Positions 13,983-58,979 of a stretch of DNA of 64,000 bases are shown piece after piece. Source of the stretch: an uncultured Thermoanaerobaculia bacterium (GTDB taxonomy: Bacteria; Acidobacteriota; Thermoanaerobaculia; Multivoradales; JAGPDF01); contig CAYZWR010000001.1 in assembly GCA_964481735.1 (NCBI GenBank), positions 29,300 to 93,299 on the forward strand, read 5' to 3'. The position numbers were made by a program, and so were the translations under genes. Each line of letters starts with the position of its first letter. Position 1 is the stretch's first letter. A model generated the notes under the pieces. That model saw nothing but the letters and a program-made list of their open reading frames with translations, was not told the origin of the DNA and ran no database searches.

Positions 13983-14001
13983 CCGGCGTCCCTTGGCCGC
14001 G

Positions 14002-26038: not shown

Positions 26039-26123
<85 letters not shown>

Positions 26124-27843: not shown

Positions 27844-30123
27844 TCAGCCGCCGCTCGCCGCCTCGACGCGGTTGCGCCCGTTGCGTTTGGCGGCGTAGAG
27901 CGCTTCGTCGGCCGCGGCGAGCAGCGGTCGGGAGCGGGTTCGCCCTTCGCCGCGCGCCTCGTCGCGGCTCGCCACGCCGATCGAGATGGTCACCTCGAGG
28001 TGCGATCCGTCGTCGAGCGGGATGGCGAGCTCGGCGATGCGTTGGCGGATCTTCTCGGCGAGCTGCATCGCACCCTCGAGCGGCGTTTCGGGCAACACGA
28101 TCAGGAACTCCTCGCCGCCATAGCGCCCGATGAAGTCGGTCTCGCGCAGCTGCGCCTTGAGCTCGGCGGCGACCCGCTGCAGCACGAGGTCGCCCGCCAG
28201 ATGGCCGCGGCGGTCGTTGATCCACTTGAAGCGGTCGAGATCGGCCAGGCCGATCGCCAGCGGCCGGTCATAGCGCGTCGCGCGGCTCCATTCGCGATCG
28301 AGGACTTCCTGGATCGCCTCGCGCCGATAGAGTCCGGTGAGCCCCTCGAAAGTGGCCGATTCGAAGAGCCGGGCGTTCTCGAAGACGGTCGCCGCCTGGC
28401 TCGCCAACAAGGTCAGGAGCTCCAACTCGTCGGCGAGAAAGCGCTCCCCGGAGCGCTTGCCGCCGAGCAGCAGGAGCCCGACCAGCTGGCCGTGGGAGAG
28501 CATCGGCACGGCGAGCTCGCTCGCGGTCTCGCGCACCCGGGCGCCCAGCGTCCCGCCCCCCCGTTCGAGCAACGAGGCGGGCAGCGGGCGGGCCGAGCGC
28601 GCCAGGTTGCGCAGCCCGGGATCTTCCGGCGCGAGCAGCGCGGTCTGTTCCGTTTCGGCCAGCGCCCGGCTCGACGAGGCGACCGAGAGCAGGTTGCCCA
28701 TCGGCGGCGTCGCCACCCAGAGGACCGCCGATCTCACGCCGAAGATCCGGCAGAGCTCGAGGCAGAGGTGCTCTCCCATGCGCGGCAACTTGCCGTGCGC
28801 CGGCAGCTCGCTCGCGAGGCCCAGAACCCGTTGACGGAAGGACTCGCTCTCCGGAAAGAGCCGCCGGTCGATCAGCCGCTGGAGCCGCACGCGCAGCGGG
28901 TTGAACAGCAGTCCGAGCCCCAGCGTCGCGGCCGAGATCAGCCAGACCGAGTGGCCGCCGACCGGAAAGGCCTGCGCGAAGAGCGTCCCGCCGGCCCCCA
29001 GCGCGGCGTAGAAGATGAGCACCAGGAGCGTCGTCAGCGTGCCGTAGAGCAAGCTCTTGCGGATCACCAGCTCGATGTCGAACAGCTGGTAGCGCAGGAT
29101 GGCGGCGAAGACCGCCACGGGATAGGCGAGCAGCACCAAGCTCCAGACGCTCTGCGGGACGTCCACCGCCGGCAGGCCGAGCACCTGTCGCGCGCCGAGA
29201 AAAGCGACCACGGCGACCCAGGGGAAGATGCCGAGCAGCACCAGCCCGGCCTGCTGCCGACCGGCGCGCTGGGGATGGGTGAGCAGGCGGCTGGTGAGCA
29301 GCCCACCGACCGCCGCCGCCCAGAGCGGCAGGCCGAGATCGAGTTGCACGAATCCCGCCTGGGTGAAGGTCCAGGGCAGGCTCCCGCCGCGCGATTCGAC
29401 CCAGACCGCGAGCGCGCTCGCGCCGGCGAGCGCGCCGCCCACCGCGTAGTAGGCCGGGACGACCCAGCGGCGTTTCTGCAACCACTCCGGCCGGTCGGGA
29501 ATGAGCGAAGCCATGTGCAGGTCGGTGCCCATCTGGAATCCGGTGAGCAGCAGGAAGGCGAGCTCGCTCACCAGGCCGACCGTCGTCGTGGTCACCGGGT
29601 CGTAGGGCAGGACGATCTCGGCCGCGACCGCGAGCGAATAGAGGTAGAGCAGGCGGAGGCGGACGTCGCGGCCGGCGCGCCCGATGGCGAGCAGCGCGAG
29701 CGCCAGGTAGGCGGCGGCGACGACGAAGTCGATCACCAGATCGCGCCAGGGCGGCTCGACGCCGGGAACCAGCCTGAGCTCGAGGCGCTGCGCGCCACGG
29801 TCGATCACGAAGAGCACCGGCCGGCCCCGCCCGAAGTCGCGCGCCGCCAGGTCGTAGTCGATGCCGCGGTGAATCGCCCGCCCGTCCACCTCGAGCAGCC
29901 GGTCGCCGCGTCGCATCCCGGCGCGCGCCGCCGGCAGGTCCGGCACGACCTCCCGGATCACCACCGCGACCTCGTTCTGGTCGAAGGAGAAGCCGACCCG
30001 TCGCCCGCTCGCCTCCTCGGCGTGGGTCCACTTCGTCGTGTAGAGAATCGCCAGGGCGAGCGCCGGCAGGCCGTAGATCAGCAGGCGGCGAATCGGGGGC
30101 GGGAGGGGGCGCTCGGCTCGCAC
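27844..30123 (-). CDS. diguanylate cyclase with periplasmic PDZ, 7TM, GAF and GGDEF domains
   Basis: PDZ-like segment (GMRRGDRLLEVDG), ~7 TM helices, GAF region, GGDEF active site RYGGEEF with I-site RETD; start assigned to GTG 30123 (18 nt after yidD stop). Confidence 0.8.
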   Translation of the reverse strand: MRAERPLPPPIRRLLIYGLPALALAILYTTKWTHAEEASGRRVGFSFDQNEVAVVIREVVPDLPAARAGMRRGDRLLEVDGRAIHRGIDYDLAARDFGRGRPVLFVIDRGAQRLELRLVPGVEPPWRDLVIDFVVAAAYLALALLAIGRAGRDVRLRLLYLYSLAVAAEIVLPYDPVTTTTVGLVSELAFLLLTGFQMGTDLHMASLIPDRPEWLQKRRWVVPAYYAVGGALAGASALAVWVESRGGSLPWTFTQAGFVQLDLGLPLWAAAVGGLLTSRLLTHPQRAGRQQAGLVLLGIFPWVAVVAFLGARQVLGLPAVDVPQSVWSLVLLAYPVAVFAAILRYQLFDIELVIRKSLLYGTLTTLLVLIFYAALGAGGTLFAQAFPVGGHSVWLISAATLGLGLLFNPLRVRLQRLIDRRLFPESESFRQRVLGLASELPAHGKLPRMGEHLCLELCRIFGVRSAVLWVATPPMGNLLSVASSSRALAETEQTALLAPEDPGLRNLARSARPLPASLLERGGGTLGARVRETASELAVPMLSHGQLVGLLLLGGKRSGERFLADELELLTLLASQAATVFENARLFESATFEGLTGLYRREAIQEVLDREWSRATRYDRPLAIGLADLDRFKWINDRRGHLAGDLVLQRVAAELKAQLRETDFIGRYGGEEFLIVLPETPLEGAMQLAEKIRQRIAELAIPLDDGSHLEVTISIGVASRDEARGEGRTRSRPLLAAADEALYAAKRNGRNRVEAASGG

Positions 30124-30140
30124 GGGAAAGTGCGCCGAGT

Positions 30141-30407
30141 CTACGGCGAATCGACCGTGCCCGCTGCCGTCCACGGCCCGCAGCGCAGCAGCCGCCGGGC
30201 GATGCGCAGATTGCCCCGCAGCGCGCCGTCCCGGACGAGCACCGCCGCGGCGTAGCGGCTGCAGCTCGGCTCGAACCGGCAGCGCACGCCGCCACGGTGC
30301 AGCACGGGCGAGATCCAGGCCTGATAGCGGCGAATCGCGGCCAGCTCGGCGCGTACCGTCCACTGGGCGAGCGGCGGCCGGCTCCAGTCGAGAGCGAGCA
30401 GCGCCAC
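30141..30407 (-). CDS. yidD: membrane protein insertion efficiency factor YidD
   Basis: AAIRRYQAWISPVLHRGGVRCRFEPSCSRYAAAVL…RLLRCGPW motifs; start uncertain (GTG 30407 chosen, no in-frame ATG). Confidence 0.6.
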   Translation of the reverse strand: MALLALDWSRPPLAQWTVRAELAAIRRYQAWISPVLHRGGVRCRFEPSCSRYAAAVLVRDGALRGNLRIARRLLRCGPWTAAGTVDSP

Positions 30408-30445
30408 CGCCAGCGCGGCCGCGAGCAGCCAGCGCCGTCGCCGGT

Positions 30446-30886
30446 TCAGGTTCCGCTCCGCCAGAGGTAGACCCAGTTGGCGGCGAGCGCCGCCGCGGCG
30501 AGCCAGCCGGCACCCCGTGGCAGGGTCCGCGGCTCGGCCGGCAGGCGGCCGGCGAGCGCGAGCGCGGCGGCCACCAGGCCGCCGATCACCAGCGCGCCAG
30601 CCACCAGCACGGCGAGCGGATTGGCGGCGAGCGCGGTCAACGGATCGAGTCGACCGAGCGCGAGGAGCGCCCGGCCGCTGCCGCAGCCCGGGCAGGGCAG
30701 GGCGAGCCAACGGCGGACCGGACAGGCCGGGAGCAGCGGCGCGAGCCGGGGCGCGAGCGGCGCCAACGCGAGCAGGGCGAGGGCGGTGGCCCCCCAGAAG
30801 AGAGCCGCTTGCCGCGTCGAACGCTCGGCGTCAGTTGGCGCCGGCGGCGGCGCCGGCGACGAGCGCCGCGATGCTGCCGAAGACAA
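30446..30886 (-). CDS. DUF2752 domain membrane protein
   Basis: CPVRRWLALPCPGCGSGRALLAL motif; TTG start overlaps Yip1 gene 3' end by 56 nt, start uncertain. Confidence 0.5.
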   Translation of the reverse strand: MSSAASRRSSPAPPPAPTDAERSTRQAALFWGATALALLALAPLAPRLAPLLPACPVRRWLALPCPGCGSGRALLALGRLDPLTALAANPLAVLVAGALVIGGLVAAALALAGRLPAEPRTLPRGAGWLAAAALAANWVYLWRSGT

Positions 30887-39920: not shown

Positions 39921-41528
39921 TCAGCGGGTCGGATCGATCAACGACAGACGGCGCGGGTCGAGGTCGAGCTGGTCGAGCAGCGCTGCGCCGAAGCGCTCGC
40001 CGTAACGTCCCGGAAAGTAGGCCGCCGAGAGCGCCCGCTCCTGCGGCGCGCCGTCCGGCAGGAGCGCGTCGCGAAGCTGCGCGAAGCGGCGGCCGACCAG
40101 CTCGTCGCGCCGTCCGGCCGCCGCTGCCACCTTCGAAGCGAAAGCCTCGAGCGCGCGCTCGATCGTCTCGCGGGTCTTCTCGAGCGGTCTCTCGAGCGTC
40201 GGGTCGAGGGCCTGCGCGGGCTCGGCCAGGCTGGCCACCTCGCCCAGGATGCGCTCGCGCACCGGAGCGACGAAGCCGCCGCCGGAGCGCTCGGCCAGCC
40301 GACGCTCGGCGAGGGCGGCGTCGGCGAGGAGCTCGTCCAGGGTGAGCCCCAGCTCCGCCAAGTGCTCCGCCTGCCGGGGGTCGAGCACGAGGGCGCGGGG
40401 CCGGAGCGCGACCGCGGGCCGCGCTGCGTCGAGCAGGGCGTAAGCCGGCGCCGCCTGGGGGAGGTAGGCCATCTCGCCCGGGCCGAGCAGCAGCAGCGTC
40501 GTGCCGAGCACCGCGTCCTGAATCGCCGGCCGGGCGAGGACCCCGGGCGAGACCGCGGCCGGGTTCCCCTCGAGGGTCTCCAGGAGCTCGGCGAGCGGCA
40601 GCTCGCCGTCGAGGCCGCGCAGCGCGAAGCCCGCCTCGCCGCGCCATTCGATCCGGCGGCGCGCGCCGGCGCGCAGCAGGAAGAGCGGCGAGGCGTTGGG
40701 CTGTGGCGCGACCTGCAGCCCGTGGCCGCGCGCCAGGATCGCCGCCTCGCGCTCGGCGACGGCGCGAGCGAGCTCGGCGCGGCGCTCGACCAGCCGCACG
40801 AGGTGCGGCCGCTCGGCCTGTTTGAGCTCGGGCAGCTGGGCGTCGAGCAGCAGCGGCGCGCGTCCGCCGAAGGTCGCCGCGAGCTGCCGCGCGAAGGCCT
40901 CGCCGAAGCGCGCCTCGGGGCGCCACCAGGTGCCCAGCTTCTCCAGCCAGGCGCGGAACCACTCCGCCGGATAGAGCGCCGCGAGCTCCGCGAGCAGCAC
41001 GCCGACCTGCGGCCCCACCGTGCGCAGCCCCACCGGCGCGAGCGGCGCCGGGTCCTCGCCCAGGCCGAGGCGCCGCAGGCCGTCACTGGCGGGAAACGTC
41101 GCGGTGGCGACCTCGGCGAAGTCGTGGTCCTCGGTTGCCATCCAGAAGACCGCCACCGCCGGCCGCCCGGCCGCCTCGATCGACTCCGCCCAGCGCACCG
41201 CCGCAGCCGCCTTGACCAAGGCGAGCAACGGCCCGCCGAAGAGTCCGGTCTGTTGCCCGGTGGCCACCACCGCGGTCGCCGGATCGGCGAGCTTCGCCGC
41301 GAGCTCGGCTGCGCGCGGGTGGCCGTAGCCCGCGTTGGCGGTCGCGAGGCCCGACGCCAGCGCTTCGCGCCCCGGCGACGGAGCTCTCTCGGCGGGCTGG
41401 ACGCCAGGCGCCAGGAAGCCGAGCGGCGCGAGGAGGTCCAGGTCGCGACCTGCGACGAGCGTCCCGGCGAGGCCACCGAGCGGCGCGTCGAGGCTCTGGG
41501 CCACCGACCTGGCGCGCTCCGCGGTCAC
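39921..41528 (-). CDS. bshC: bacillithiol biosynthesis cysteine-adding enzyme BshC
   Basis: AVVATGQQTGLFGGPLLALVKAAAAV and FWMATEDHDFAE motifs characteristic of BshC (YllA); GTG 41528 after GGAGGG, GTGA overlap with upstream gene stop. Confidence 0.8.
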   Translation of the reverse strand: MTAERARSVAQSLDAPLGGLAGTLVAGRDLDLLAPLGFLAPGVQPAERAPSPGREALASGLATANAGYGHPRAAELAAKLADPATAVVATGQQTGLFGGPLLALVKAAAAVRWAESIEAAGRPAVAVFWMATEDHDFAEVATATFPASDGLRRLGLGEDPAPLAPVGLRTVGPQVGVLLAELAALYPAEWFRAWLEKLGTWWRPEARFGEAFARQLAATFGGRAPLLLDAQLPELKQAERPHLVRLVERRAELARAVAEREAAILARGHGLQVAPQPNASPLFLLRAGARRRIEWRGEAGFALRGLDGELPLAELLETLEGNPAAVSPGVLARPAIQDAVLGTTLLLLGPGEMAYLPQAAPAYALLDAARPAVALRPRALVLDPRQAEHLAELGLTLDELLADAALAERRLAERSGGGFVAPVRERILGEVASLAEPAQALDPTLERPLEKTRETIERALEAFASKVAAAAGRRDELVGRRFAQLRDALLPDGAPQERALSAAYFPGRYGERFGAALLDQLDLDPRRLSLIDPTR

Positions 41529-44500
41529 TCCGTGCCCTCCGGAGCTCCCGCGAGATCGAATCCCGGCTCGGGCAGATAGCCCTGGGCTTCGATCTTCTCC
41601 CCGCTGAACCGCGCCCATGCGGGGAGACCGGGCGTGTAGCTCTTCGTCATCTCGTGCAGCTCGAGCGCCGAGTTGGCGACGAAGAGATAGACCAGGCGTC
41701 CCTCGCCGAACGGACTGGGCAGCGCCAGGAAGAGCCCTTCGTCCGAGCGGCCGTGGCTCCTGCCCTCGAAGCGGAAGTAACCGTCGCCCAGCGTCGCGGG
41801 AGCCCGCTCGCCCCACGCCGCCACCAGCCGCGCGACCAGGGCGTTGTCGCGCGGGCCGCCGAGCAGCACGAGGTCGCGGGTCGCGAGCTGCTCCGCGCTC
41901 ACCTCGGCGTCCTTCACCACCGCAACGAGCTGCTCCGTGAAGTTGTCGGCGAGCGTGGTCTGGAAGCGCAGCGCCAGGGTGCGCTGCGCCTCGTCGGCGC
42001 GGCTGGTGCCGTGCACGATGAGGGTCTCCGGCCAACGCTCGGTGACGTGCGGCCAGGCCGCCCAGTACTGGCGCGCGACCGGGACGTCGTTGCCGGGGTC
42101 GAAGCGGACGGCGAGCGGCCTTTCCGCCACGTCGAAGGTCGCGACGCCGTGGGCGTCGTCGAGGATCATCGGGTGACGGACGCGCGCCGTCGCGGTCTCG
42201 ATCTCGAGACTGGTCGCGAGTGGATAGACGTTGCCCTCCGGCTGGTCGACCGCGACCGTCACCCGCCACGCCTTGCCCTTCCTCGCGTAGGTGACGCTCG
42301 GCGTGGGGGCCGGGAAGCCGGTGCGCTCGAGCCAGGGGGCGACGATCGGCGCCACGTCACGGCCCGCCACCTCGCGCGCGACGGCGAGGAAGTCGGCGGT
42401 CGCGACGCTCTTGCCGGCGAAGCGTTCGTGGAGCGTCCGCATCATCTTCAGGAAGCGCTCGTTGCCGAGCTGGAGCCGGAGCTGGTGGAGGGCGAAGGTC
42501 CCCTTGACCCGCGCCACCCGATACGGCGCGTAGCGGGTGTACGAGCGCTCCGCCTCGATCGCGGGGAGATCCGCCTCGCGCTCGAGCGTCGCCTGGAGGA
42601 GGACGTTCTGGCGGGCGAGCGCGTCGGCCAACGCCTTGGCGGCCTTCGCTTCGTCGTCCGGCAGGTCGTGGAGCAGCTGCCAGTACCCCGCCGTGCCGCT
42701 CGCCAGCCAGTGGTCGGCGGCGCTCGCCGGGAAGAGGGTCCCCTGCCAGAGCTGCTTCGCTTCCACCCGGCTCCGGTCCTTCACCTTCGCGAGGTCGAGC
42801 CTGGGCGACTCGGTCTGCTCCTCGAGCGGTGCGAAGCGCCCGGCGGCCTTCGCCTCGTCGAGCTTCGCCTCGAGCCAGAGCGGCGTGACCGCGGTGTAAC
42901 CCAGCGTCAGGTGCGGCTGGGCGCCCGGCAGGTCGGGCATCCGCCGCGCGCCCTTGGCGGGGAACTTCTCGCGCAGCGTGACCTTGCCATGGTGCGCCCA
43001 GAAGACCAGCCGTTCGGCCATCTCCGAGGTGGTGATCTTGCCGTCGCAGGCGTGCGCGAGGTTGATCGGCGAGGTGGCGAAGAGACGCGCCACCGACGGG
43101 ACGTCGATCCGCCCCTTCTCCCGGGCGTAGTAGGCGTTGAACGCCAGGTCGCGGTTCCAGGGGGCGAACACCGGATCGTAGGGGGCGCCGTTCGGCTGCA
43201 CCGCGTACTCGGCGCGCACGTCGGGGTCGCGCGCGTTGTTGTTGGCCCACAGGAAGCCGGGGGTGCCGAAGGGGTTCTCGCCCGAGCGCCAGAGCTTCAG
43301 CTTCTCGGTGCCGAGCAGGCAGATCGCGGTCTCGTCCGTCTTGATGTCGGCCATCGGCCAGTCGTTGGTGTAGAGGCCGTTGTTCCGCTCGGCGAGAATG
43401 GCGACCACTTCGTCGATCGTCCGGCCGTACTGCACGGCGCGGCGGATGCGGTCGCTCATCGGCGCGCCGTCCGGATTCCACGGCGTCTGCGCGACCGTCG
43501 TCTCGCCGACCACCAGGCCGGCGCCGTTCAGGTAGAAGTCGGTGCCCGAGTGGATGCCGCCGGGGAAGGTCTGGAAGACGACCCGCTCACCGCTCGTCGG
43601 CACGAGATCGAGCAGGACGTTGAAGTGGACGCCGGTGTAGCCGCTCCACATGAAGATCTGCCCGAAGACCACCCGGCCGTCGGCGGTCGCCGGTCCGGTC
43701 GCGGCGAGCGCCGAGCACTTGTGCGAGCCGTCGGGAATGGCGAGCTCCTCCTCGGCAGTGAGGAAGCTCCGTCCGGTGAGGGCGTGTGGCAGCGTGGCGA
43801 GCCCGCTCTTCAGATAGTCGACGTCGATCGAGGAGTTGAGCGTGACGACGTCGAGGAAGTCGATCGCCTTGCCCTCCCAGGTCGCCCCGGCCGCGGCCGC
43901 CCCGTCGGCGATGCCGCGCATCTCGGTCAGCAGCTCCTCGGAGAAGCCGCGCAGCATCGTGGCGTCGGCGAGCGTGCGCAGCGCGCTCCAACCCGCCGCC
44001 GGGTCCTTGCCACTCGCCACCTGGGCGAGCTTCGCCAGGTAGGCCGCGATCTCGTCGGCCAGCAGATAGCCGTGCTGGTAGCCACGGGCGTAGGGCTCGC
44101 CCTCGACGTGCAGCAGGATCCAGCCCCCCTGCTCGGTGCGGAAGCCGCGGTCGGCCCAACGCACGCTCTCGAGCGGCACGAAGTCGGCGACGTCGGTGAC
44201 CTCCTCGAGCTCGAGATCGTCGAACCAGGCGGTGCCGCGCGCCGTGCCGTTCCAGCCCAGCGCGACGCGCACCCGATCCTCGGCGCGGGTGGCGACGAAG
44301 GGCATCTCGACCGCCGTCCAGTCGCGCGTCGCGCCGACCGCCGGCGAGTGGTTGGTGAAGGGAAAGGAGAGCATCGAGAGGGTGGCCGGAACGGCCGTGG
44401 GATAGCGCGCCTGTGGATCGGAGAGCGCGCCTTCGGTGCGGATCCAGGCGCGCAGACGATAGACGTGGCCGACTTCCAGCCGCACCGGCGGCGAGAGCAG

Positions 44501-44764
44501 GGCGAGCGAGGCGTCCTGCGGGTTCTCCAGCCGGAGGCTGGCGCTGCCGCCATGGGCGAGCGCGGCATCGCGCGTCGCGCGGGCCGCCCCCTCCGGCGTC
44601 GCGCTCTCGATCGTCCAACCCGCCGGCAGCTCTCCCGGCGCCGCCGCCTCGAAGCCGCCGTTCGGCACCTCGAGCGCGGTTGCCGCGGGCGCGACCGCCG
44701 CCAGCCCAAGCCACGCCGCCAGCCACCCGCTCCCCACCATTCCGCGTCGCGCTCCATCCACCAT
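41525..44764 (-). CDS. large secreted multidomain protein (CBM-like N-domain, Ntn-hydrolase-like Cys domain, helical C-terminal region)
   Basis: ATG 44764 after GAGGAG; signal peptide MVDGARRGMVGSGWLAAWLGLAAVAPAATA; 1079 aa; candidate nucleophile in SHKCSALAATG. Confidence 0.65.
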   Translation of the reverse strand: MVDGARRGMVGSGWLAAWLGLAAVAPAATALEVPNGGFEAAAPGELPAGWTIESATPEGAARATRDAALAHGGSASLRLENPQDASLALLSPPVRLEVGHVYRLRAWIRTEGALSDPQARYPTAVPATLSMLSFPFTNHSPAVGATRDWTAVEMPFVATRAEDRVRVALGWNGTARGTAWFDDLELEEVTDVADFVPLESVRWADRGFRTEQGGWILLHVEGEPYARGYQHGYLLADEIAAYLAKLAQVASGKDPAAGWSALRTLADATMLRGFSEELLTEMRGIADGAAAAGATWEGKAIDFLDVVTLNSSIDVDYLKSGLATLPHALTGRSFLTAEEELAIPDGSHKCSALAATGPATADGRVVFGQIFMWSGYTGVHFNVLLDLVPTSGERVVFQTFPGGIHSGTDFYLNGAGLVVGETTVAQTPWNPDGAPMSDRIRRAVQYGRTIDEVVAILAERNNGLYTNDWPMADIKTDETAICLLGTEKLKLWRSGENPFGTPGFLWANNNARDPDVRAEYAVQPNGAPYDPVFAPWNRDLAFNAYYAREKGRIDVPSVARLFATSPINLAHACDGKITTSEMAERLVFWAHHGKVTLREKFPAKGARRMPDLPGAQPHLTLGYTAVTPLWLEAKLDEAKAAGRFAPLEEQTESPRLDLAKVKDRSRVEAKQLWQGTLFPASAADHWLASGTAGYWQLLHDLPDDEAKAAKALADALARQNVLLQATLEREADLPAIEAERSYTRYAPYRVARVKGTFALHQLRLQLGNERFLKMMRTLHERFAGKSVATADFLAVAREVAGRDVAPIVAPWLERTGFPAPTPSVTYARKGKAWRVTVAVDQPEGNVYPLATSLEIETATARVRHPMILDDAHGVATFDVAERPLAVRFDPGNDVPVARQYWAAWPHVTERWPETLIVHGTSRADEAQRTLALRFQTTLADNFTEQLVAVVKDAEVSAEQLATRDLVLLGGPRDNALVARLVAAWGERAPATLGDGYFRFEGRSHGRSDEGLFLALPSPFGEGRLVYLFVANSALELHEMTKSYTPGLPAWARFSGEKIEAQGYLPEPGFDLAGAPEGTE

Positions 44765-44857
44765 CGCCAGTCTCCTCGCTCCCCTGCCGGGCGATGGTAT
44801 CAACCGATCTCGTAGGATTCGCCCGCCGGCGCAAGAAACGCCGGGGGAGAACCGCTC

Positions 44858-45607
44858 ATGGAATGGCTGGCCGACCCACAGGTCTGGATCGCGTTCGCGA
44901 CCCTGCTGCTGCTCGAAGTGGTCCTGGGCATCGACAACATCGTCTTCATCTCGATCCTGGCCGGGAAGCTCCCGGCCGCCGAGCAGGCGCGAGCCCGCAC
45001 CACCGGCCTCGCCCTCGCCATGGTGATGCGCGTCCTGCTGCTCCTCTCGATCGCCTGGATGGCGCGCCTGACCGCGCCCCTCTTCGCGGTGGTCGACTAC
45101 GAGATCTCGGGACGCGACCTGATCCTGATCGCGGGCGGGCTCTTCCTGCTCGCCAAGTCGACTTTCGAGATCCACGACAAGCTGGAAGGGGAGGAGGGGG
45201 GCCAGTCGGCGCGCGTCGCCGCCTCGTTCTCCGCGGTCATCGTGCAGATCCTGCTGCTCGACATCGTCTTCTCGCTCGACAGCGTCATCACCGCGGTCGG
45301 CATGACCGACAAGATCCCGATCATGGTGGCGGCGGTCGTCGTCGCGGTGATCCTCATGATGTTCTTCGCCGGTCCCATCTCGCGCTTCGTCGAGCAGCAC
45401 CCGACGGTGAAGATGCTCGCCCTCTCGTTCCTCCTGCTGATCGGCGTGACCCTGGTGGCCGAGGGGCTCGAGTTCCACATCCCCCGGGGTTACGTCTACT
45501 TCGCGATGGCCTTCTCGCTCGGGGTCGAGCTCTTGAACCTGCGGCTGCGCCGCAAGCCCGCGCCGGTCCACTTGCGAGCCCGCTACGCGGAGGAGGAGAA
45601 GCGCTGA
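44858..45607 (+). CDS. TerC-family integral membrane protein
   Basis: LGIDNIVFISILAGKLP and SLDSVITAVGMTD TerC signature segments. Confidence 0.85.
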   Translation: MEWLADPQVWIAFATLLLLEVVLGIDNIVFISILAGKLPAAEQARARTTGLALAMVMRVLLLLSIAWMARLTAPLFAVVDYEISGRDLILIAGGLFLLAKSTFEIHDKLEGEEGGQSARVAASFSAVIVQILLLDIVFSLDSVITAVGMTDKIPIMVAAVVVAVILMMFFAGPISRFVEQHPTVKMLALSFLLLIGVTLVAEGLEFHIPRGYVYFAMAFSLGVELLNLRLRRKPAPVHLRARYAEEEKR

Positions 45608-45657
45608 CGCCGCGGGCGCTCCGGGGAAGCGGCGCACCCGTTAGAATGCGAGGTTCG

Positions 45658-47127: not shown

Positions 47128-47479
47128 GGGGGCGTACCGGGTTCGACGGGGATCAGTGCGGTTCGGGAGCGGCGTGTCGGGCTTAACCACCCGTAAAATC
47201 GGCACTTATACCTGCCAACGACAACCTCGCACTCGCGGCTTAATTGACCGCGACGTCTCGTAGATTGCCCGCTCCACGGCGGCCTACGAGGCGACGCTAA
47301 TGTGGAGTGAACGCCGCGGTTGGCACCGTACCGCGGCGGGATCGTCAAAACGATGCTGGCGCCGGCGTCGGAGGCCTTCTTCCAGAACGCCGGGGCGAGA
47401 CTCCAAACGAAGGCTACGCACGTAGAAGCTTCCGGGACGCGATCTTCGGACGTGGGTTCAATTCCCACCGCCTCCACCA
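47128..47479 (+). ncRNA. ssrA: tmRNA (ssrA), tag peptide (A)ANDNLALAA
   Basis: 5' GGGGGCGUACCGGGUUCGACGGG, tag ORF GCC AAC GAC AAC CTC GCA CTC GCG GCT TAA at 47214-47243, 3' GGACGUGGGUUCAAUUCCCACCGCCUCCACCA. Confidence 0.9.
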
Positions 47480-47744
47480 TGTTTCACCTCACTTCACCAG
47501 CCACGGTGGGCCTTGCCTCTTCTTCTCATCCACCCAGCTGCCAAGAAGAGGGCTCTTCCCACTGCCTCAACCTCACCGAGGCGCTCGAAGGTCCGAGCGC
47601 CAGTGGTTGCGTAATGGTCCGTGAAGTGCACAACATCTTGTGCTAACCTCGTGACATTCTGAGCAACGAAGCAGGCTTCCCGTCGACTCGACGGGCGGCA
47701 GGGTGGCCGTCCGCCGAAGACCGTCTCCGGATCGCTCCGGCCCG

Positions 47745-49250
47745 ATGAGCCTGCTTCCCCCCATCCTGCTGCTCGACGACGGCGCCGACGATCGCGAGTT
47801 GGCGCGGCTCGTCCTCACCGGCGCCTTCGGCGACGTCGCGATCGAGGAGGTGACCGACGCCGCGGCGCTGGCGCGCGCCGTCTCCGGCGGCACGTTCGGC
47901 GTGGCGCTCTGCGAGCACGAGCTCTCCTGGATCCGCTCGCGCGATCTCCTGCGCCTGCTCCACGACCTGCGCCCCGACTGCCCGGTGATCGTGCTCACCG
48001 CGGCGCCCATCGAGCGGGTGGCGAGCGAGCTCCTCCATCTGCTGCCCGACGCCGTGCTGCCGAAGACGGCGACGGGCTACGCGGGCCTGCCGCGCGCGCT
48101 CCGCGCGGCGTTGCTCGCGGCGCGACGGCGCGCCGCCAGCGAAGCCTCCGAGGCCCCGGCGCGGCGCCTGCTCGACGCCCTGCCGGTGGGGATCTTCGTG
48201 GCGAGCGACGACGGCACCCTGCTCGACGCCAACCCGGCGCTCGCCCGGCTGCTCGGCTTCGCAGCCGCCGCCGACTGCGTGCACCGCTCGCTCGAGGGTC
48301 TCTTCGCCTCGCCCAGCGAAGGAGAAGCCTGGCGCACCCGTCTGCTCGCCGGCGAGGGAACCCTGACGACGGAGACCCACCTCCGGCGCCCCGACGGCGG
48401 CGGGGTCGCCGTCCGCATCTCGGCCTGGCGCAGCGGCGGCGAGCCCGGTGGGGCCCTCCGCTTGCAGGGGATGGTCGCGGAGCGCGCCGCGGGTGCCGAC
48501 CCCGGGTCGGCCTCGGCCGAGCGGAGCGCCGCCCTGGAGCGCTCGAACGGCGAGCTCCAGGAGATGGTCTACGCCGTCTCGCACGACCTGCGACAGCCGA
48601 TCACCCAGGTCGTCCGCACCCTCGAGCTGCTCGAGAAGTCGAACGGCGCCAGGCTCGCGGCCGAAGGGCGCGAGCTGCTCGGCCAGGCGCAGCAGAGCAG
48701 CCGCCGGCTCGACGGCATGGTCGAGGCGGTGCTCGGCTGCGCGCGCATCGAGAGCCGCGGCCGGAGCTTCCGGCCGGTCGACCTCGCGCCGCTCTTCGCG
48801 CGGGTCGTCGAGCGGCTGGAGCCCGAGCGGGCCGCGGCGGGGGCCGAGATCTCCAGCGATCCGCTGCCGACCCTCCCCGGCGACGAAGCTCAGCTCGAGC
48901 AGCTGCTCCAGAACCTGCTCGACAACGCGCTCAAGTTCCGCGCTCCGGCGGCCGAGCGCGCGCCGCGCATCCACCTCGCCGCGCGCGACGAGGGCGAGAC
49001 CTGGCACCTCGCGCTGCGCGACAACGGAATCGGCATCGCGCCGCAGGACAGCGAGCGCATCTTCGCGATCTTCCAGCGCCTGCACACCGCCGACGAGATT
49101 CCCGGCAGCGGCATCGGCCTCGCCATCTGTCGCCGCATCGTCGCCCGGCACGGCGGGAGGATCTGGGTCGAGTCCCGCCCGGACGAAGGCTCGACGTTCC
49201 ACTTCACGCTCGCCAAGCGCCCGAGGGGAGAGGGGACTGACCATGGGTGA
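47745..49250 (+). CDS. sensor histidine kinase with N-terminal receiver-like and PAS domains
   Basis: H-box VSHDLRQPI, N-box LLDNALKF, G-boxes DNGIGI / GSGIGL; ATG 47745. Confidence 0.8.
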   Translation: MSLLPPILLLDDGADDRELARLVLTGAFGDVAIEEVTDAAALARAVSGGTFGVALCEHELSWIRSRDLLRLLHDLRPDCPVIVLTAAPIERVASELLHLLPDAVLPKTATGYAGLPRALRAALLAARRRAASEASEAPARRLLDALPVGIFVASDDGTLLDANPALARLLGFAAAADCVHRSLEGLFASPSEGEAWRTRLLAGEGTLTTETHLRRPDGGGVAVRISAWRSGGEPGGALRLQGMVAERAAGADPGSASAERSAALERSNGELQEMVYAVSHDLRQPITQVVRTLELLEKSNGARLAAEGRELLGQAQQSSRRLDGMVEAVLGCARIESRGRSFRPVDLAPLFARVVERLEPERAAAGAEISSDPLPTLPGDEAQLEQLLQNLLDNALKFRAPAAERAPRIHLAARDEGETWHLALRDNGIGIAPQDSERIFAIFQRLHTADEIPGSGIGLAICRRIVARHGGRIWVESRPDEGSTFHFTLAKRPRGEGTDHG

Positions 49251-51342
49251 CGAGCAGCAGCTCGCCGTGCTGATGATCGAGGACGATCCCCTCGACGCCG
49301 CGCTCTTCTGCCACCTCCTCGGCGAGGCCGAGCCGCGCGCCCGGATCGAGCACCGATCACGCCTCGCGCACGGCATCGCGCGGCTCGAGCAAGGCGGCAT
49401 CGACCTCGTGCTGCTCGACTTCTCGCTGCCCGACAGCAGCGGGCTCGACTCCTACGACACCCTCGCGGCGCGGCACCCGGAGGTGCCGGTCATCGTCCTC
49501 ACCAGCCTCGACGACGACCGGCTCGCCGCCGAGGCCGTGGCGCGCGGAGCGCAGGACTACCTGGTCAAGCGCGAGGTCGACCTCCGGCTGCTCGGGCGCG
49601 CCCTGCGTTACGCCTTGGCCCGCCACCGCGCCGAACGGGCCCTGCGCCAGAGCGAGGAGCGCTATGCGCTCGCCGTGCGCGGCGCGAACGACGGCCTCTG
49701 GGACTGGGACCTGGACGCCCAGACGGTCTACCTCTCGCCGCGCTGGCGCCAGATGCTGGGGGGCCCGGAGGAGGAGAGCGTCGAGCGCGTCGAGGTCTGG
49801 CTCGAACGGGTGGCGCCGCAGGATCGCGCCACGCTCCGCTCGGCGCTCGCCGCCGCCGACCGCGCCGGAGAGTCCCAGGTCACGCTCGAGCACCGCATGG
49901 TGCGCGACGACGGCGACATCCTCTGGGTGCTCACCCGCGGCGCGCTGGTTCGCGCCGCCGACGGCCGGGTGCGGCGAATCGCCGGCTCGATGACCGACAT
50001 CTCGGCGCGCAAGCACGCCGAGCAACAGCTGCTCTACGATGCGTTTCACGACGGCCTGACCGGGCTCGCCAACCGCAGCCTCTTCCTCGACCGCCTGGGG
50101 GTGGCGCTCGCCGGTCTCAAGCGCGACAGCGAAGGCCGTTTCGCGGTGCTCTTCCTCGATCTCGATCGCTTCAAGACGGTCAACGACAGTCTCGGACACA
50201 CGGTGGGCGATCGCCTGCTGATCGAGATCGCCCGCCGGCTCGAGCGGCAGATGCGGCCGAGCGACACCGTCGCCCGGCTGGGCGGCGACGAGTTCGCGGT
50301 GATCGCCGGCGGGGTGCGCGACGGCGCCGGGGCGGCGCACATCGCGGAGCGCATCCAGCAGGCCCTGGTCGCCCCGTTCCGGATCGGCGGCCAGGAGGTC
50401 TTCGTCACCGCCTCGATCGGCATCGCGCTGCCCGACGACGTCACCGTCGCGGCGGAGAGCCTGCTGCGCGACGCCGATCTGGCGATGTACCGCGCCAAAG
50501 CCGCCGGGCGGGGGCGCTACGAGGTCTTCGACCTGGAGCTCCACCGCGCGGCGGTCGCCCTGCTCAAGCTCGAGACCGAGCTGCGCCGCGCCGTCGCGGC
50601 GGGCGACTTCGTCATGCACTATCAGCCGATCGTGACCCTCGCCAGCGGGCGGATCGTCGGCTTCGAGGCGCTCACCCGCTGGAAGCACCCGGAGCGCGGC
50701 CTGGTCGCGCCGGCGCAGTTCATCGCCCTCGCCGAGGAGACCGGCCTGGTCGTGCCGCTCGGCTGGCTGGTGCTCGACAAGGCCTGCCAGCAGGCGCGCG
50801 AGTGGCAATCGCGCTTCGCGGCCGATCCGCCGCTCTACATGAGCGTCAACGTCTCCGGCAAGCTCTTCGCCCAGGAGGGCGCGGTGGAGCAGCTGCTCGC
50901 GATCCTCGAGCGTTCGGGGCTCGCGCCCGAGAGCCTGCGCCTCGAGGTCACCGAGAGCGTGGTGCTCGACCACGGCGAGGAGGTGATGCGCCGGCTGCGC
51001 CTGCTGCGCAGCTTCGGCGTGCAGCTGTCGATCGACGACTTCGGGACCGGCTACTCCTCGCTCTCCTATCTGCAGCGCTTCCGCTACGACTCGCTGAAGA
51101 TCGACCGTTCCTTCGTGCGCGACCTGGCGCTCGAGGACTCGCGGGTGATCGTCGAGACGATCCTCTCGCTGGCCAGTCACCTCGGCATCGGCGTCGTGGC
51201 GGAAGGCGTGGAGACCGAAGAGCAGCTGGCGCGTCTGCGCCAGCTGGGGTGCCCGCACGGCCAGGGCTACTGGTTCGCGCGGCCCCTCGACGCGAGCGCC
51301 GCCGAGGCGCTCCTGGGCTCCGGGATCAGCCTGCCCAACTGA
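49243..51342 (+). CDS. response regulator with PAS, GGDEF and EAL domains
   Basis: REC (LMIEDD…DLVLLDFSLPD), GGDEF (RLGGDEF), EAL (EALTRW…DDFGTGYSSL); 8-nt overlap with kinase gene. Confidence 0.85.
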   Translation: MGDEQQLAVLMIEDDPLDAALFCHLLGEAEPRARIEHRSRLAHGIARLEQGGIDLVLLDFSLPDSSGLDSYDTLAARHPEVPVIVLTSLDDDRLAAEAVARGAQDYLVKREVDLRLLGRALRYALARHRAERALRQSEERYALAVRGANDGLWDWDLDAQTVYLSPRWRQMLGGPEEESVERVEVWLERVAPQDRATLRSALAAADRAGESQVTLEHRMVRDDGDILWVLTRGALVRAADGRVRRIAGSMTDISARKHAEQQLLYDAFHDGLTGLANRSLFLDRLGVALAGLKRDSEGRFAVLFLDLDRFKTVNDSLGHTVGDRLLIEIARRLERQMRPSDTVARLGGDEFAVIAGGVRDGAGAAHIAERIQQALVAPFRIGGQEVFVTASIGIALPDDVTVAAESLLRDADLAMYRAKAAGRGRYEVFDLELHRAAVALLKLETELRRAVAAGDFVMHYQPIVTLASGRIVGFEALTRWKHPERGLVAPAQFIALAEETGLVVPLGWLVLDKACQQAREWQSRFAADPPLYMSVNVSGKLFAQEGAVEQLLAILERSGLAPESLRLEVTESVVLDHGEEVMRRLRLLRSFGVQLSIDDFGTGYSSLSYLQRFRYDSLKIDRSFVRDLALEDSRVIVETILSLASHLGIGVVAEGVETEEQLARLRQLGCPHGQGYWFARPLDASAAEALLGSGISLPN

Positions 51343-55953: not shown

Positions 55954-56346
55954 CTAGTAGTTGGTTTCGTCGAGCATCTCGGGCTCTTCTTCGTCCGAGA
56001 AGGGGGCGTTCTTGTCGAGCGAGCCGGCGAGCCAATCGAGGAAGGCGGGCTCTCCCTTGCAGACCTTGAAACAGAGGATCTCGGGCAGCTCGTAGCTGTG
56101 CAGCTCCTTGATCGTCGCTTCGATCGCGGGGTACTCGCTCTCGAGCGTCTTCGCCAGGAGCATGAACTCGGTGTCGCGGCAGATCTTGCCCTGCCAGCGG
56201 TAGACCGAACGCAGTCCCGAGACGATGTTGACGCAGGCCGCGTGCCGCCGGGCGATCAGCTCGGAGGCGATGAGGTTGGCCTGTTCTTCGGTGCCGACGG
56301 TGGTTACGACGACGAGTCCTGCCACGGGCGGGGAAGCTACTCCCAT
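55954..56346 (-). CDS. cutA: divalent-cation tolerance protein CutA
   Basis: VVVTTVGTEEQANLIASELI…CVNIVSGLRSVYRWQGKI…YELPEI CutA1 motifs; acidic C-terminal extension. Confidence 0.75.
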   Translation of the reverse strand: MGVASPPVAGLVVVTTVGTEEQANLIASELIARRHAACVNIVSGLRSVYRWQGKICRDTEFMLLAKTLESEYPAIEATIKELHSYELPEILCFKVCKGEPAFLDWLAGSLDKNAPFSDEEEPEMLDETNY

Positions 56347-56405
56347 CCGGCGAGTCAAGTCAAACCGCGGTGCGGCATGCGGCGGACGCCGGGCCCTCGC
56401 CCGGC

Positions 56406-57008
56406 TCAACGCGCCAGCCAGCGCTCGTTCGCGACGTCGTAGGTGAGCCGTCCGACCTTCCCGGTGCGGCCGAAGACCCGCACCGCGGCGAGATGGCGCT
56501 TGCCGTCCGTCACGTACACCGAGCCCGGGGTCGAACCGCCGAAGTCGCTGAAGGAGGCGATGTCGGAGCGGTTGAAACGAATCGGGTCGTCGAGCCGGTC
56601 GAGCCGGCGGCGGGGGTCGGCGGGATCGCGCGGGGCCTCTCCTGGCGGGAAGCCGAAGCGGATCTGCCGCCCGAAGTGGGCGAGTCGTTGGACGGGAGCC
56701 ACCTCGGGGTCGACCCCGGACTCGATGTCGGCGCTGAGCACGCCGTCGCCATCCCCGTCGCGGTAGAGCGCCCAGGTCACCGCGCCGTCGTCCGCGACGC
56801 GGAACTTGAGCCCCACGTAGGCGCTGTGGCGGATCGCGAAGGCGCGCGCAAGGCGCAGCGTGGAGGCGACTTCCATGGCGGCGAGCTCGACGCGAAGCTG
56901 GCCGGCGAGGTCGAGCAGCACGGGCACGCCGAGCGTCACGAGGAGCCCCGAGAGCGCCAGGCCCAGCACCAGCTCGAGCAGGCTCGTACCGCGTTCTTTC
57001 GCGCGCAT
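56406..57008 (-). CDS. prepilin-type N-terminal cleavage/methylation domain protein (GspH/FimT-like pseudopilin)
   Basis: RGTSLLELVLGLALSGLLV class-III signal; ATG 57008 chosen (GGAGG upstream). Confidence 0.7.
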   Translation of the reverse strand: MRAKERGTSLLELVLGLALSGLLVTLGVPVLLDLAGQLRVELAAMEVASTLRLARAFAIRHSAYVGLKFRVADDGAVTWALYRDGDGDGVLSADIESGVDPEVAPVQRLAHFGRQIRFGFPPGEAPRDPADPRRRLDRLDDPIRFNRSDIASFSDFGGSTPGSVYVTDGKRHLAAVRVFGRTGKVGRLTYDVANERWLAR

Positions 57009-57037
57009 GGTCGTCGCCTCCACCCTGGGCTCCGGGC

Positions 57038-57385
57038 TCAGCTCTTCGCCGCCGGGGCCGACTTCGCCTGCCGCGGCAGTTGGACCTTCTCGGCGAGGGT
57101 GGTCGCCCCGGAGAGCGCCACGTAGGGCTTGATCTGCTCGAAGGTCGACTCGCCGATGCCACGCACCAGCATCAGGTCCTCGAGGCTCTTGAAGGCGCCG
57201 TTCTTCTCGCGGTGCTCGACGATCCGCTGCGCGACCGCCGGTCCGATGCGCGGCAGCAGCTGGAGCTGATCGACCGTGGCGGTGTTGACGTTCACCGTCC
57301 CGCCGGGCGCGGCAAAGGCCGGCAGGGCAGCGAGGGTGAGGACGAGGGCGAGAACGGCGGCGACGAAACGACGGCTCTGCGACAT
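57038..57385 (-). CDS. comEA: ComEA-family helix-hairpin-helix DNA-binding protein
   Basis: Signal/TM then VNVNTATVDQLQLLPRIGPAVAQRIVEHR…LVRGIGESTFEQI HhH pair; ATG 57385 after AAGGAG. Confidence 0.8.
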   Translation of the reverse strand: MSQSRRFVAAVLALVLTLAALPAFAAPGGTVNVNTATVDQLQLLPRIGPAVAQRIVEHREKNGAFKSLEDLMLVRGIGESTFEQIKPYVALSGATTLAEKVQLPRQAKSAPAAKS

Positions 57386-57798
57386 GGTGAAGCTCCTTTC
57401 CTTGGGTTCGGCGGCGCAGCGCGCCGCGCGGGTTGGTTCGAATGGGTTGTCGAGTTGCTTCAACGATCGGTGCTGCGTTCCGAATTGGCCTGCGCGGTTC
57501 GGTCTTTCGGGCTCTCTCTCGGCGTCCCTCCTTTCTCCGCTGGGTTGACCTGCGCGAGCCTCTAGATCACGTTCGCTGCCACCTCCCAGGAAAGAGTCAA
57601 GTTGAAGTAAACAAACGGCTTGACGAAATCGTTCGGAGCGTGGCGGGGAGGCCGCGGGACAAGCGATCAGGCGGCGGGGAGACCGTTCGGGGGTGGGCGA
57701 CGCGGCGCGGGGTCGCTCCGCGCTGGGGTCGAGGCCGCTGTCAAGGAATCTGGACGGCGGCGCAATCGCTTGCGCCGATCGGATAGGCTCCGCGAGCC

Positions 57799-58506
57799 AT
57801 GACCGAGGCGACGCCCCGCTCGACCGCGCGCGAGTATGCCGAGGCCCTGCTGATCGCGGCGCTCTTCCTGCTGTTCACCAACACCTTCGTCATCAAGACC
57901 TTCTTCATCCCGAGCGGATCGATGGAGAACACGCTGCTGGTGGGGGACCACCTGTTCGTCAACCGGTTCATCTTCGGGCCGGCGGCGAGCGAGGCCGAGC
58001 GCTCGCTGCTCCCGCTGCGCTCCCCGCGGCGCGGCGACATCGTCATCTTCCGCTCGCCCGAGCGCCCGACGGTCGACCTGGTGAAGCGCCTCATCGGCCT
58101 GCCGGGCGACACCCTGCAGATCATCAGCAAACAGCTCTACGTCAACGGCCAGAAGGTCGCCGACGGTGGCTACGTCGAGCACAAGGACCCGCGCACCTTC
58201 CTCAATCGGCCCTACCTGTCCGAGCAGATGCGGCTGCGCGACAATTTCGGGCCGGTCACGGTGCCCGAGGGGCAGTACTTCTGCATGGGAGACAACCGCG
58301 ACTACTCCTACGACTCCCGCTTCTGGGGGACGGTGCCCGCGCACTATCTGAAGGGACGCGCTTTCGTCATCTACTGGTCCTTCGGCGGCGGCACCTCCGA
58401 CGGCACCTGGCGTGGCCTGCCCGCGAAGCTCAAGGAGATCGCCAACACCATCATCGGGTTCCCGACCAAGACCCGGTGGGCACGCACCTTCCACCTGCCA
58501 CGCTGA
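57799..58506 (+). CDS. lepB: signal peptidase I
   Basis: Box B SGSMENTL (Ser), box D KRLIGLPGD (Lys), box E GDNRDYSYDSRFWG. Confidence 0.9.
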   Translation: MTEATPRSTAREYAEALLIAALFLLFTNTFVIKTFFIPSGSMENTLLVGDHLFVNRFIFGPAASEAERSLLPLRSPRRGDIVIFRSPERPTVDLVKRLIGLPGDTLQIISKQLYVNGQKVADGGYVEHKDPRTFLNRPYLSEQMRLRDNFGPVTVPEGQYFCMGDNRDYSYDSRFWGTVPAHYLKGRAFVIYWSFGGGTSDGTWRGLPAKLKEIANTIIGFPTKTRWARTFHLPR

Positions 58507-58547
58507 GCCGCCGCTCGCTCGTCCGCGGTCTCGTCGACGCCGGGCTG

Positions 58548-58979
58548 GTGGCGGTGCTCCTTGCCCTGTTCGCGCGCGCCTTCCTGATCGAGGTGGTCTC
58601 GATCCCGAGCGACTCGATGTCGCCGACCCTCGTCGCCGGCGATCAGGTGCTGGTCGATCGCTGGATCTTCGCCGACAAGGCGAGCTGGCGCGCCCTGCCG
58701 GTTCGCCCCGTGCGCAGCGGCGACATCGTGCTCTTCCGCTCGCCCCTCCCGCCGCATCGGCTCCTGGTCAAGCGCTGCGTCGCGGCGGACGGCGAGCTCG
58801 CCGGCGGGAGCCGGGTTGCGCCGGGCGAGCTCTTCCTGGCGGGCGACAATCGTGCGCGCTCGTTCGACTCGCGCAGCTTCGGGCCGGTCGCGACCTCGGC
58901 GGTCCGCGGGCGGGTCTTCGCGATCCTCTGGTCGCGCGCCGCGAGCGACTCCCGCCGCGCCCTCCGCGCGGTGCGCTAG
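58548..58979 (+). CDS. short signal peptidase I paralog
   Basis: SDSMSPTL, VKRCVAADG, GDNRARSFDSRSFG; start uncertain (GTG 58548 or CTG 58503 overlapping lepB stop). Confidence 0.55.
   Translation: MAVLLALFARAFLIEVVSIPSDSMSPTLVAGDQVLVDRWIFADKASWRALPVRPVRSGDIVLFRSPLPPHRLLVKRCVAADGELAGGSRVAPGELFLAGDNRARSFDSRSFGPVATSAVRGRVFAILWSRAASDSRRALRAVR

Follow-up and report, generated by a model that had tools for sequence, protein, structure and literature searches.

A comEA–minor pilin gene pair conserved across Acidobacteriota as a candidate DNA-uptake operon

The 64,000-nucleotide stretch analysed here (the window, from contig CAYZWR010000001.1 of an uncultured Thermoanaerobaculia bacterium) carries on its minus strand a comEA gene, coding for a small secreted helix-hairpin-helix (HhH) protein, directly followed by a gene coding for a prepilin-type minor pilin. 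These two genes form a closely spaced, same-strand unit that is deeply conserved across Acidobacteriota. The explanation that we favour, with middling confidence, is that of a co-regulated two-gene DNA-uptake unit, in which ComEA would act together with a FimT-like minor pilin that, within a type IV pilus encoded elsewhere, would capture DNA or help to capture it. The pair and the landmarks of the pilin lie as follows:

57038–57385, minus strand: comEA, 115 aa, with a signal peptide (residues 1–25), HhH_3 (residues 30–90) and a Lys/Ala-rich tail.
56406–57008, minus strand: prepilin-type minor pilin with a GspH/FimT/FimU fold, 200 aa from the ATG.
56931–57008, minus strand: class III (prepilin) signal of the pilin, read from sequence.
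56727–56759, minus strand: DGDGDGVLSAD loop, pilin residues 84–94, the family signature; DxDxDG-type motif and putative Ca2+ site.
56448–56462, minus strand: GKVGR, pilin residues 183–187, which occupies the place of the FimT-type G-[R/K]-x-[R/K] motif, where the penultimate beta-strand begins.

In this window of about 72% G+C, the G+C content at the third codon position (GC3) was used to tell real genes from the many spurious open reading frames (ORFs), and a GC3 of 0.90 supports both comEA and the pilin gene, the former lying 29 nt upstream of the pilin ORF. The comEA product matches Pfam HHH_3 (2e-25, 89 bits) and the NCBIfam model TIGR00426 of the ComEA HhH repeat region (63.3 bits for a cutoff of 53.1); the full-length model TIGR01259 scores under its cutoff, since the window ComEA is devoid of the long N-terminal part of Bacillus ComEA. 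The protein starts with a Sec-type signal peptide (MSQSRRFVAAVLALVLTLAALPAFA/AP, the slash marking cleavage here and below, at the site AFA/AP), and its ATG is preceded at 7 nt by the Shine-Dalgarno sequence GGAAAGGAG. With its signal peptide and double HhH, it resembles Vibrio cholerae ComEA (PMC3879209) and Neisseria ComE, which are likewise small secreted proteins. As regards the pilin, the first GTG at 57023 offers an alternative start (ORF 56406–57023, 205 aa), but the ATG at 57008 is the more likely one, given the GGAGG located 8 nt upstream, the typical 7-residue leader and the matching public gene call; public data indeed hold identical calls for the 115-aa ComEA and the 200-aa pilin. 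The first-pass annotation, made from the sequence alone, had proposed a ComEA HhH gene with a class III pseudopilin of about 200 residues directly downstream, which the ORFs, the Pfam and NCBIfam matches and the GC3 confirm.

The chief new finding is that the pair is conserved. About 1,840 close homologues of the pilin were found, mostly in metagenome-assembled genomes of Thermoanaerobaculia, and an exhaustive profile search yielded 662 representatives of 50%-identity clusters at E <= 1e-10. A survey with one genome per GTDB species gave 80 loci, assigned by their record titles to Thermoanaerobaculia, Holophagales, Polarisedimenticolia, Vicinamibacteria/Vicinamibacterales and 'Ca. Multivorans', besides a few probably mis-binned contigs labelled as other phyla; 76 of these loci include enough upstream DNA, and ComEA partners were detected by tblastn and with a hidden Markov model built from ComEA partners. 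ComEA is encoded immediately upstream and on the same strand in 72 of these 76 loci. The pairing holds down to 29% pilin identity, including members 29–40% identical to the window pilin, and persists in at least six differing flanking contexts (lepB/cutA; lepB/mtnA; LuxR; TonB receptor-ccsA-hemA; an unknown membrane protein with an Eco57I-like restriction-modification gene; a sigma54 activator). Recurring across these contexts, the adjacency greatly exceeds what chance would produce. The spacing is operon-like: between the ComEA stop and the codon for Gly(-1) of the pilin lie mostly 60–140 nt, and in one clade 17–23 nt, which implies that the genes overlap there. Distant members have lost the lepB, cutA, metB and mtnA neighbours seen in the window; as the pair persists with other flanks, comEA and the pilin gene are the conserved unit, and cutA and lepB represent lineage-specific synteny. 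Such an association differs from that of model organisms, where comEA is monocistronic or paired with comEC and not with a pilin gene.

Two other candidates drawn from these loci were rejected. The first is that of cutA and lepB as functional partners, both being lost from the neighbourhood in distant clades; cutA adjoins the pair in most Thermoanaerobaculia loci, is absent in the 'Multivorans' clade and in distant clades, and probably lies outside the functional unit. The second is the use as Rosetta-stone evidence of fused ComEA-pilin gene calls (300–320 aa overall). P0149 and P0173 come from visibly frameshifted assemblies, and P0082 (320 aa; L004 131–1093, L005 19–981) shows an in-frame loss of the comEA stop, with the internal Met and the prepilin leader kept. 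A Sec-exported N-terminal domain followed by a prepilin anchor being topologically implausible, the P0082 fusion is doubtful, and the fused calls are probably artefacts or pseudo-fusions rather than true domain fusions.

Besides their adjacency, the two genes seem to share a control region. Conserved blocks emerged from the alignment of 13 lepB-comEA intergenic regions, and are found in the window at the following positions:

57567–57581, minus strand: sigma54-type -24/-12 promoter-like element TGGCAGCGAACGTGA, 196 nt upstream of the comEA ATG.
57739–57755, minus strand: upstream element 1, GTCCAGATTCCTTGACA, which may be bound by an enhancer-binding protein, some 175 nt upstream of the sigma54 motif.
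57658–57672, minus strand: upstream element 2, GCCTGATCGCTTGTC, a degenerate copy about 90 nt upstream of the sigma54 motif, aligned with the second copy in relatives.
57526–57546, minus strand: Shine-Dalgarno-like block AACCCAGCGGAGAAAGGAGGG / AACCGGAGAAAGGAGG, conserved in the alignment, in the predicted 5' untranslated region (UTR).

The criterion for sigma54 was -24 GG and -12 GC at fixed spacing (TGGCAC-N5-TTGC). In 36 of 70 loci, strict TGGCA-N6-TTG stands upstream of comEA at a distance of 115–260 nt, where 0.009 occurrences per 460 nt would be expected, and three loci of a distant clade show the canonical TGGCACG-N4-CTGCT. The near-palindromic element GTCCAGATCGCTTGAC (TGTC..GACA in relatives) recurs at about -173 and -93 from the sigma54 motif in many loci, with at least one copy in 27 of 69 loci compared to a background of 0.023 per 500 nt, and this two-copy spacing is the layout that would be expected of enhancer-binding-protein sites. 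PilR/sigma54 control is common for type IV pilin genes. Most Thermoanaerobaculia have such a sigma54-type element with two upstream sites before comEA, and these motifs make it probable that in this class a sigma54-type promoter, served by two activator sites, drives the pair. In the same line, a gene coding for a response-regulator-type sigma54 activator with REC, Sigma54_activat and HTH_8 domains directly follows the pilin gene in two Vicinamibacteria loci (L082 and L084, just downstream of 10001–10600), and lies nearby in another clade (L067 6469–8475); it is a candidate regulator of the operon.

The Shine-Dalgarno-like block comes about 35–45 nt after the -12 element, with some 150 nt left before the start of comEA, and is followed by a purine-rich UTR; no start codon is conserved after it in the 13-region alignment. 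An RNA element in this long 5' UTR was considered and rejected, no Rfam match being found at E <= 1 and the folding being no better than that of shuffles (z +0.89). At the other end of the pair, a simple scan finds no terminator on the minus strand between the pilin gene and cutA. The pilin stop is followed (56347–56405, minus strand) by a perfect 7-bp GC hairpin, GCCGGGC-GAGG-GCCCGGC, without a T-tract, and hairpins downstream of the pilin gene are not statistically enriched across loci (median z 0.13). This hairpin, together with a TTTGAC sequence located before cutA and conserved in close relatives, hints at a promoter specific to cutA.

The pilin itself bears a leader reading MRAKERG/TSLLE, with a predicted cleavage after G7, Glu at mature position +5 (E12), a hydrophobic alpha1-N helix and Pro at mature position 22 (P29), and the sequence across the predicted cleavage (MRAKERG/TSLLELVLGLALSGLLVTLGVP) is that of a class III signal. 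All 77 close homologues in alignment A1 share P29, while G7 as well as E12 is retained in at least 90%; in the family alignment of 79 sequences, the +5 column is D/E in 96%, and G7, E12 and P29 are each at least 85% identical. The Pfam model N_methyl matches relatives and misses the window copy, in which the +1/+2 residues are T-S and not F-Q/T. Thr/Ala in place of Phe at +1 is seen in the window pilin and its closest relative, and the mature +5 Glu is replaced by Gln, Asp or Gly in some of L024, L027, L029, L038, L046 and L077.

As to the globular domain, the Pfam GspH match (PF12019) on the window pilin is marginal (22.8 bits for a cutoff of 21, residues 48–124); the same match is precomputed on many homologues, some of which are named 'GspH/FimT family pseudopilin' by NCBI. 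Sequence comparisons are confined to the N-terminal region: when PDB sequences were searched with the family profile, nothing but the N-terminal helix of many pilins was matched (FimU at E 0.72), which is uninformative for the globular domain, hhalign reaches Escherichia coli GspH with a probability of 85% over no more than the helix and first strand, profile similarity of E. coli PpdA to the family is limited to the N-terminal helix, and no sequence-level match to gammaproteobacterial FimT was found beyond the N-terminal helix and first strand. The AlphaFold2 model reaches a predicted local distance difference test score of 93 over the full length, and of 95.5 with a predicted template modelling (TM) score of 0.91 for residues 35–200. 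In both Foldseek searches against the PDB, the top 11 matches are exclusively EpsH, GspH, XcpH and FimU (probability 0.75–1.0, target-normalised TM 0.40–0.65, E 3e-3 to 0.15), followed by unrelated folds at probabilities <= 0.1. The closest solved folds, with a target-normalised TM of up to 0.65, are those of Pseudomonas aeruginosa FimU (PDB 4IPU/4IPV), at a root-mean-square deviation of about 4 Å, and of GspH/EpsH/XcpH (PDB 2KNQ, 2QV8, 4DQ9, 9A1F); the acidobacterial pilin is 10–14% identical in sequence to the solved GspH/FimU structures. The model fits a GspH/FimU-type core with a large predicted insertion (residues ~84–142) and an extra C-terminal hairpin.

This insertion holds the signature of the family. 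Over the 79 members, conservation covers D84-G-D-G-D-G-V...D94...G98.D100, P142-x-R144-F145, R177, W197 and the Gly(-1), Glu5 and Pro22 positions; D84, D94 and D100 are acidic in 100% of them, and D86 and D88 in 99%. Ca2+ binding by the DGDGDG loop is plausible and, as a 45-residue query around the loop gave no PDB match, is read from the motif. The loop, a feature not described for FimT, FimU or GspH, is also kept in the orthologues located in minor-pilin clusters (see below), where the neighbouring GspH-like paralogue is devoid of it.

Several traits relate the pilin to FimT from Legionella pneumophila, Acinetobacter baylyi and V. cholerae (PMC8897410, PMC12123422, PMC12040237), namely a prepilin leader with Glu5, a GspH/FimU-type two-sheet fold and a basic surface with, in most members of the family, G-[R/K]-x-[R/K] near the C-terminus; in addition, the window pilin contains no cysteines and, like Legionella FimT, no disulphide. 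In the Legionella, Acinetobacter and Vibrio proteins, this motif and nearby positive charges bind DNA (PMC8897410, PMC12123422, PMC12040237). At the aligned position, strict G[RK]x[RK] is found in 46 of the 79 family members and [GA][RK]x[RK] in 55, the first basic residue (position 184) being kept in 95% and the second (position 186) in 71%. The globular domains are basic, with a median net charge of +6 and a median pI of 10.2, and positions 55, 68, 144, 177, 184 and 186 are conserved as basic. On the other hand, the acidobacterial pilin is about 45–50 residues longer than FimT, owing to the insertion with its invariant loop and to a further C-terminal beta-hairpin after the motif, and it belongs to Acidobacteriota and not to Gammaproteobacteria, being known here from sequence and predicted fold. 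While Legionella fimT is described as distant from transformation genes, the acidobacterial gene is co-operonic with comEA.

Unlike FimU and GspH, the pilin is encoded outside a gsp or fimU-pilVWXY operon, with ComEA as conserved partner, and it shows the extra insertion and Ca-like loop without the D-region disulphide of FimU. ComN/PpdA from Pasteurellaceae and E. coli (PMC12616744) is also a GspH-family minor pilin tied to DNA uptake, co-regulated there with ComEA (ComE1) in the competence regulon; it differs in that its gene sits in the four-gene comNOPQ/ppdAB-ygdB-ppdC operon, with comEA unlinked.

The connection with type IV pili comes from three of the four loci that depart from the pairing, L073, L074 and L076 (the fourth being L011), in which a family member comes after a cluster of prepilin-type genes, without ComEA. 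All three clusters code for a giant protein of about 1000–1200 aa; in L074 and L076 it is this giant that bears an N_methyl match, and in L073 another protein, of 188 aa. Besides, L073 and L076 code for a PilX_N protein and have one more GspH-like or prepilin-type gene. In a neighbour-joining tree, the three orthologues nest inside the ComEA-linked family, and no gspG/I/J/K neighbours were found in the window or in the 80 related loci. Given the position of these orthologues in minor-pilin clusters, the family is tied to type IV pilus minor pilins and not to type II secretion systems (T2SS). In Proteobacteria, fimU stays in the minor-pilin operon at a fixed location, whereas fimT lies beside it or, in about half of the cases, is an orphan (PMC8897410); by analogy, the placement of the acidobacterial family, often away from pilus genes and in some genomes beside a minor-pilin cluster, mirrors this FimU/FimT situation.

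In the light of these loci, only part of the initial description of a minimal DNA-uptake pair can be kept. It is true of the whole window that no other T2SS or type IV pilus genes are nearby: a six-frame scan of the 64 kb for class III signal motifs gave no credible match besides this pilin, and Pfam scans of about 50 window ORFs gave no pilus or type II secretion component, including pilD, pilB, pilC and pilQ; comEC and rpoN are likewise absent from the window. The pair is however not minimal, since the assembly of a pseudopilin needs a prepilin peptidase, an assembly ATPase, a platform and a secretin, all absent from the window. Nor is it self-contained, the orthologue standing inside an ordinary minor-pilin cluster in three related genomes, as an accessory part of a larger pilus.

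The conserved adjacency suggests a joint action of ComEA and the pilin in DNA uptake. From the gene structures, the fold, the conservation of motifs and operon and the promoter-like elements, we infer a course of events running from processing and pilus incorporation to DNA binding and hand-off to ComEA, with sigma54 dependence. The two genes would be transcribed as a two-gene operon. ComEA would be exported by Sec and bind double-stranded DNA in the periplasm, and the prepilin peptidase would cut the pilin after Gly7. By means of its conserved Glu5/Pro22 N-terminal helix, the pilin would next be inserted into a type IV pilus, the genes for the machinery and the other minor pilins of this pilus presumably lying elsewhere in the genome. 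Its place in the pilus would most likely be the FimT position, where its basic surface, including the C-terminal G-[R/K]-x-[R/K] strand, would be exposed and capture DNA. Retraction of the pilus would bring the DNA through the secretin, and the co-expressed ComEA would bind the incoming DNA, thereby preventing its back-sliding.

A number of observations weigh against this explanation. In the window copy of the motif, GKVGR, the second basic residue is replaced by G and followed by R, so that the basic residue is displaced by one position; 13 more residues follow, and the motif is therefore not the C-terminal end of the pilin. The Arg-rich PRDPxDPRRRLDRLDDP stretch is limited to a Thermoanaerobaculia subclade. 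The G-[R/K]-x-[R/K] motif, less well defined, also exists in FimU proteins, which show no DNA binding (PMC8897410), and its role is minor in Streptococcus pneumoniae ComGD (PMC12040237). The structural similarity is modest (TM 0.40–0.65), its best matches are GspH and FimU, and Legionella FimT is not among the Foldseek PDB matches. As for the locus, L011 keeps the pilin without ComEA, and the -12 element is mostly TTGA instead of the canonical TTGC, the window copy being GTGA (one mismatch). The initial assignment to GspH/FimT-like pseudopilins holds for the class III signal and for the GspH/FimU-type fold, without a Foldseek match to Legionella FimT; the family also shows the motif and basic charge that go with DNA-binding FimT proteins, with an incomplete motif in the window copy.

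These points feed the main alternative, possible if rather unlikely, according to which the pilin would play a structural part, as a FimU/GspH-like adaptor or as the priming subunit of a short pseudopilus or competence pilus, and be co-regulated with ComEA for DNA uptake, the DNA being bound by another tip pilin. FimU and GspH/EpsH, the closest structural matches, act as adaptors (PMC8897410), and the conserved Glu5 and Pro22 suit the packing of a subunit into a filament; the incomplete G[RK]x[RK] of the window copy points the same way. In monoderms, moreover, DNA is bound by the PilW homologue, with little contribution from that of FimT (PMC12040237). Against such an adaptor role, L076 and L073 possess a separate GspH-like or prepilin-type gene besides the family member, which resembles a FimU and FimT pairing and would leave the family in the relocatable, FimT-like role, orphan genes being usual for fimT (about half) and not for fimU, whose location is fixed (PMC8897410). 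The family is also strongly basic.

Another alternative, which we regard as quite unlikely, keeps the same pilus and ComEA mechanics and changes their purpose: the pair would handle extracellular DNA outside transformation, for nutrient uptake or for the attachment of the pilus to extracellular DNA in biofilms. All the mechanistic evidence given for DNA uptake applies to it as well, and the searchable literature yielded no report of acidobacterial transformation. The E. coli homologues (the ppd genes next to recC) are linked to DNA as a nutrient and not to laboratory transformation, which counts in its favour. As a differing physiological output of the same machine, it is not separated from transformation by the sequence.

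The adjacency could also be inherited synteny without functional coupling, the pilin serving an unrelated pilus function such as adhesion or motility. All family members come from one phylum, so that the counts are not independent, and the pilin occurs without ComEA in L011 and in the three pilin clusters. However, survival of the pair through at least six flank rearrangements and down to 29% identity, the shared strand, the tight spacing or overlap and the common conserved promoter region make this highly unlikely. Most improbable of all is a GspH of a T2SS encoded elsewhere, in spite of the name of the Pfam family, of EpsH being the top Foldseek match by E-value and of weak N-terminal matches to NCBIfam XpsH (21 bits for a cutoff of 160) and GspH, since the GspH equivalog TIGR01708 reaches 15 bits for a cutoff of 80, no gsp genes lie in the window or the related loci, the pilin neighbours, where present, are of the type IV pilus kind (PilX_N and giant N_methyl proteins), and the conserved partner is ComEA.

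Going further than the DNA-uptake unit favoured here, the operon might be a dedicated 'DNA-capture cassette' of Acidobacteriota, switched by sigma54 and an enhancer-binding protein and turning a general-purpose type IV pilus into a DNA-uptake organelle, with the pilin as a new FimT-like subfamily in which Ca2+, acting through the DGDGDG loop, would tune the function as DNA receptor or a direct hand-off to ComEA. Taken as a whole, this proposal is tentative and much more likely wrong than right; if true, inducible natural competence would be common throughout a major soil phylum for which there are at present almost no genetic tools.

In terms of novelty, both proteins fall into known families, under whose names homologues are already annotated. 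No earlier description seems to exist of the phylum-wide comEA-pilin operon, of its sigma54-type control region or of the DGDGDG-loop subfamily; literature searches found no described comEA-GspH/FimT operon, and no competence report in Thermoanaerobaculia or Acidobacteria. FimT-type DNA receptors are characterised only in Proteobacteria, with the monoderm counterpart ComGD in Firmicutes, and the gene is there unlinked to other transformation genes. A phylum-wide operon of pilin and ComEA brings independent genomic evidence for one shared pathway, and carries the idea over to Acidobacteriota, a phylum that abounds in soil and is genetically intractable. The operon would also be a compact marker for predicting DNA-uptake capacity in metagenome-assembled genomes, and competence might be induced experimentally by way of the conserved sigma54-type promoter and activator sites. 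These data give a clear prediction on DNA uptake in Acidobacteriota and reveal no new mechanism.

Around the pair, the flanking cutA and the two signal peptidase I genes are present as the first-pass annotation had described them:

55954–56346, minus strand: cutA, 130 aa (Pfam CutA1 5.7e-34), the downstream same-strand neighbour of the pilin gene.
57799–58506, plus strand: first lepB, coding for signal peptidase I (S26 6e-48), diverging from comEA.
58476–58979, plus strand: second lepB, coding for signal peptidase I (S26 2e-29), diverging from comEA.
Beyond the lepB genes, minus strand: pyrF and pyrD.

The tandem lepB paralogues overlap by about 31 nt in the window (58476–58506), and this tandem is kept beside comEA throughout the Thermoanaerobaculia loci. 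In one distant clade, the neighbours of the pair are an Eco57I/MmeI-like type IIG restriction-modification gene and an unannotated protein of about 530 aa (L067 2545–5568; counterparts in L069, L070, L072, L077, L081 and L083).

Elsewhere in the window, a tmRNA gene (162 bits) lies at 47128–47479 and a tRNA gene at 26039–26120, both on the plus strand. The ORF at 13804–15420 (plus strand) shows Phage_sheath_1 and 1C tail sheath domains after an ABM monooxygenase-like segment; this call may have merged two genes, and a contractile injection system or a prophage remnant may be its origin; several neighbouring ORFs have no Pfam match. A PDZ-GAF-GGDEF protein is encoded at 27844–30513 (minus strand), and a REC-PAS histidine kinase (47703–49250) and a REC-PAS-GGDEF-EAL protein (48448–51342) on the plus strand; as these last two ORF calls overlap, the REC-PAS-GGDEF-EAL protein probably starts further downstream than called. 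Finally, the minus strand codes at 41525–45637 for a 1370-aa protein whose sole Pfam match is a weak Phospholipase B-like segment.

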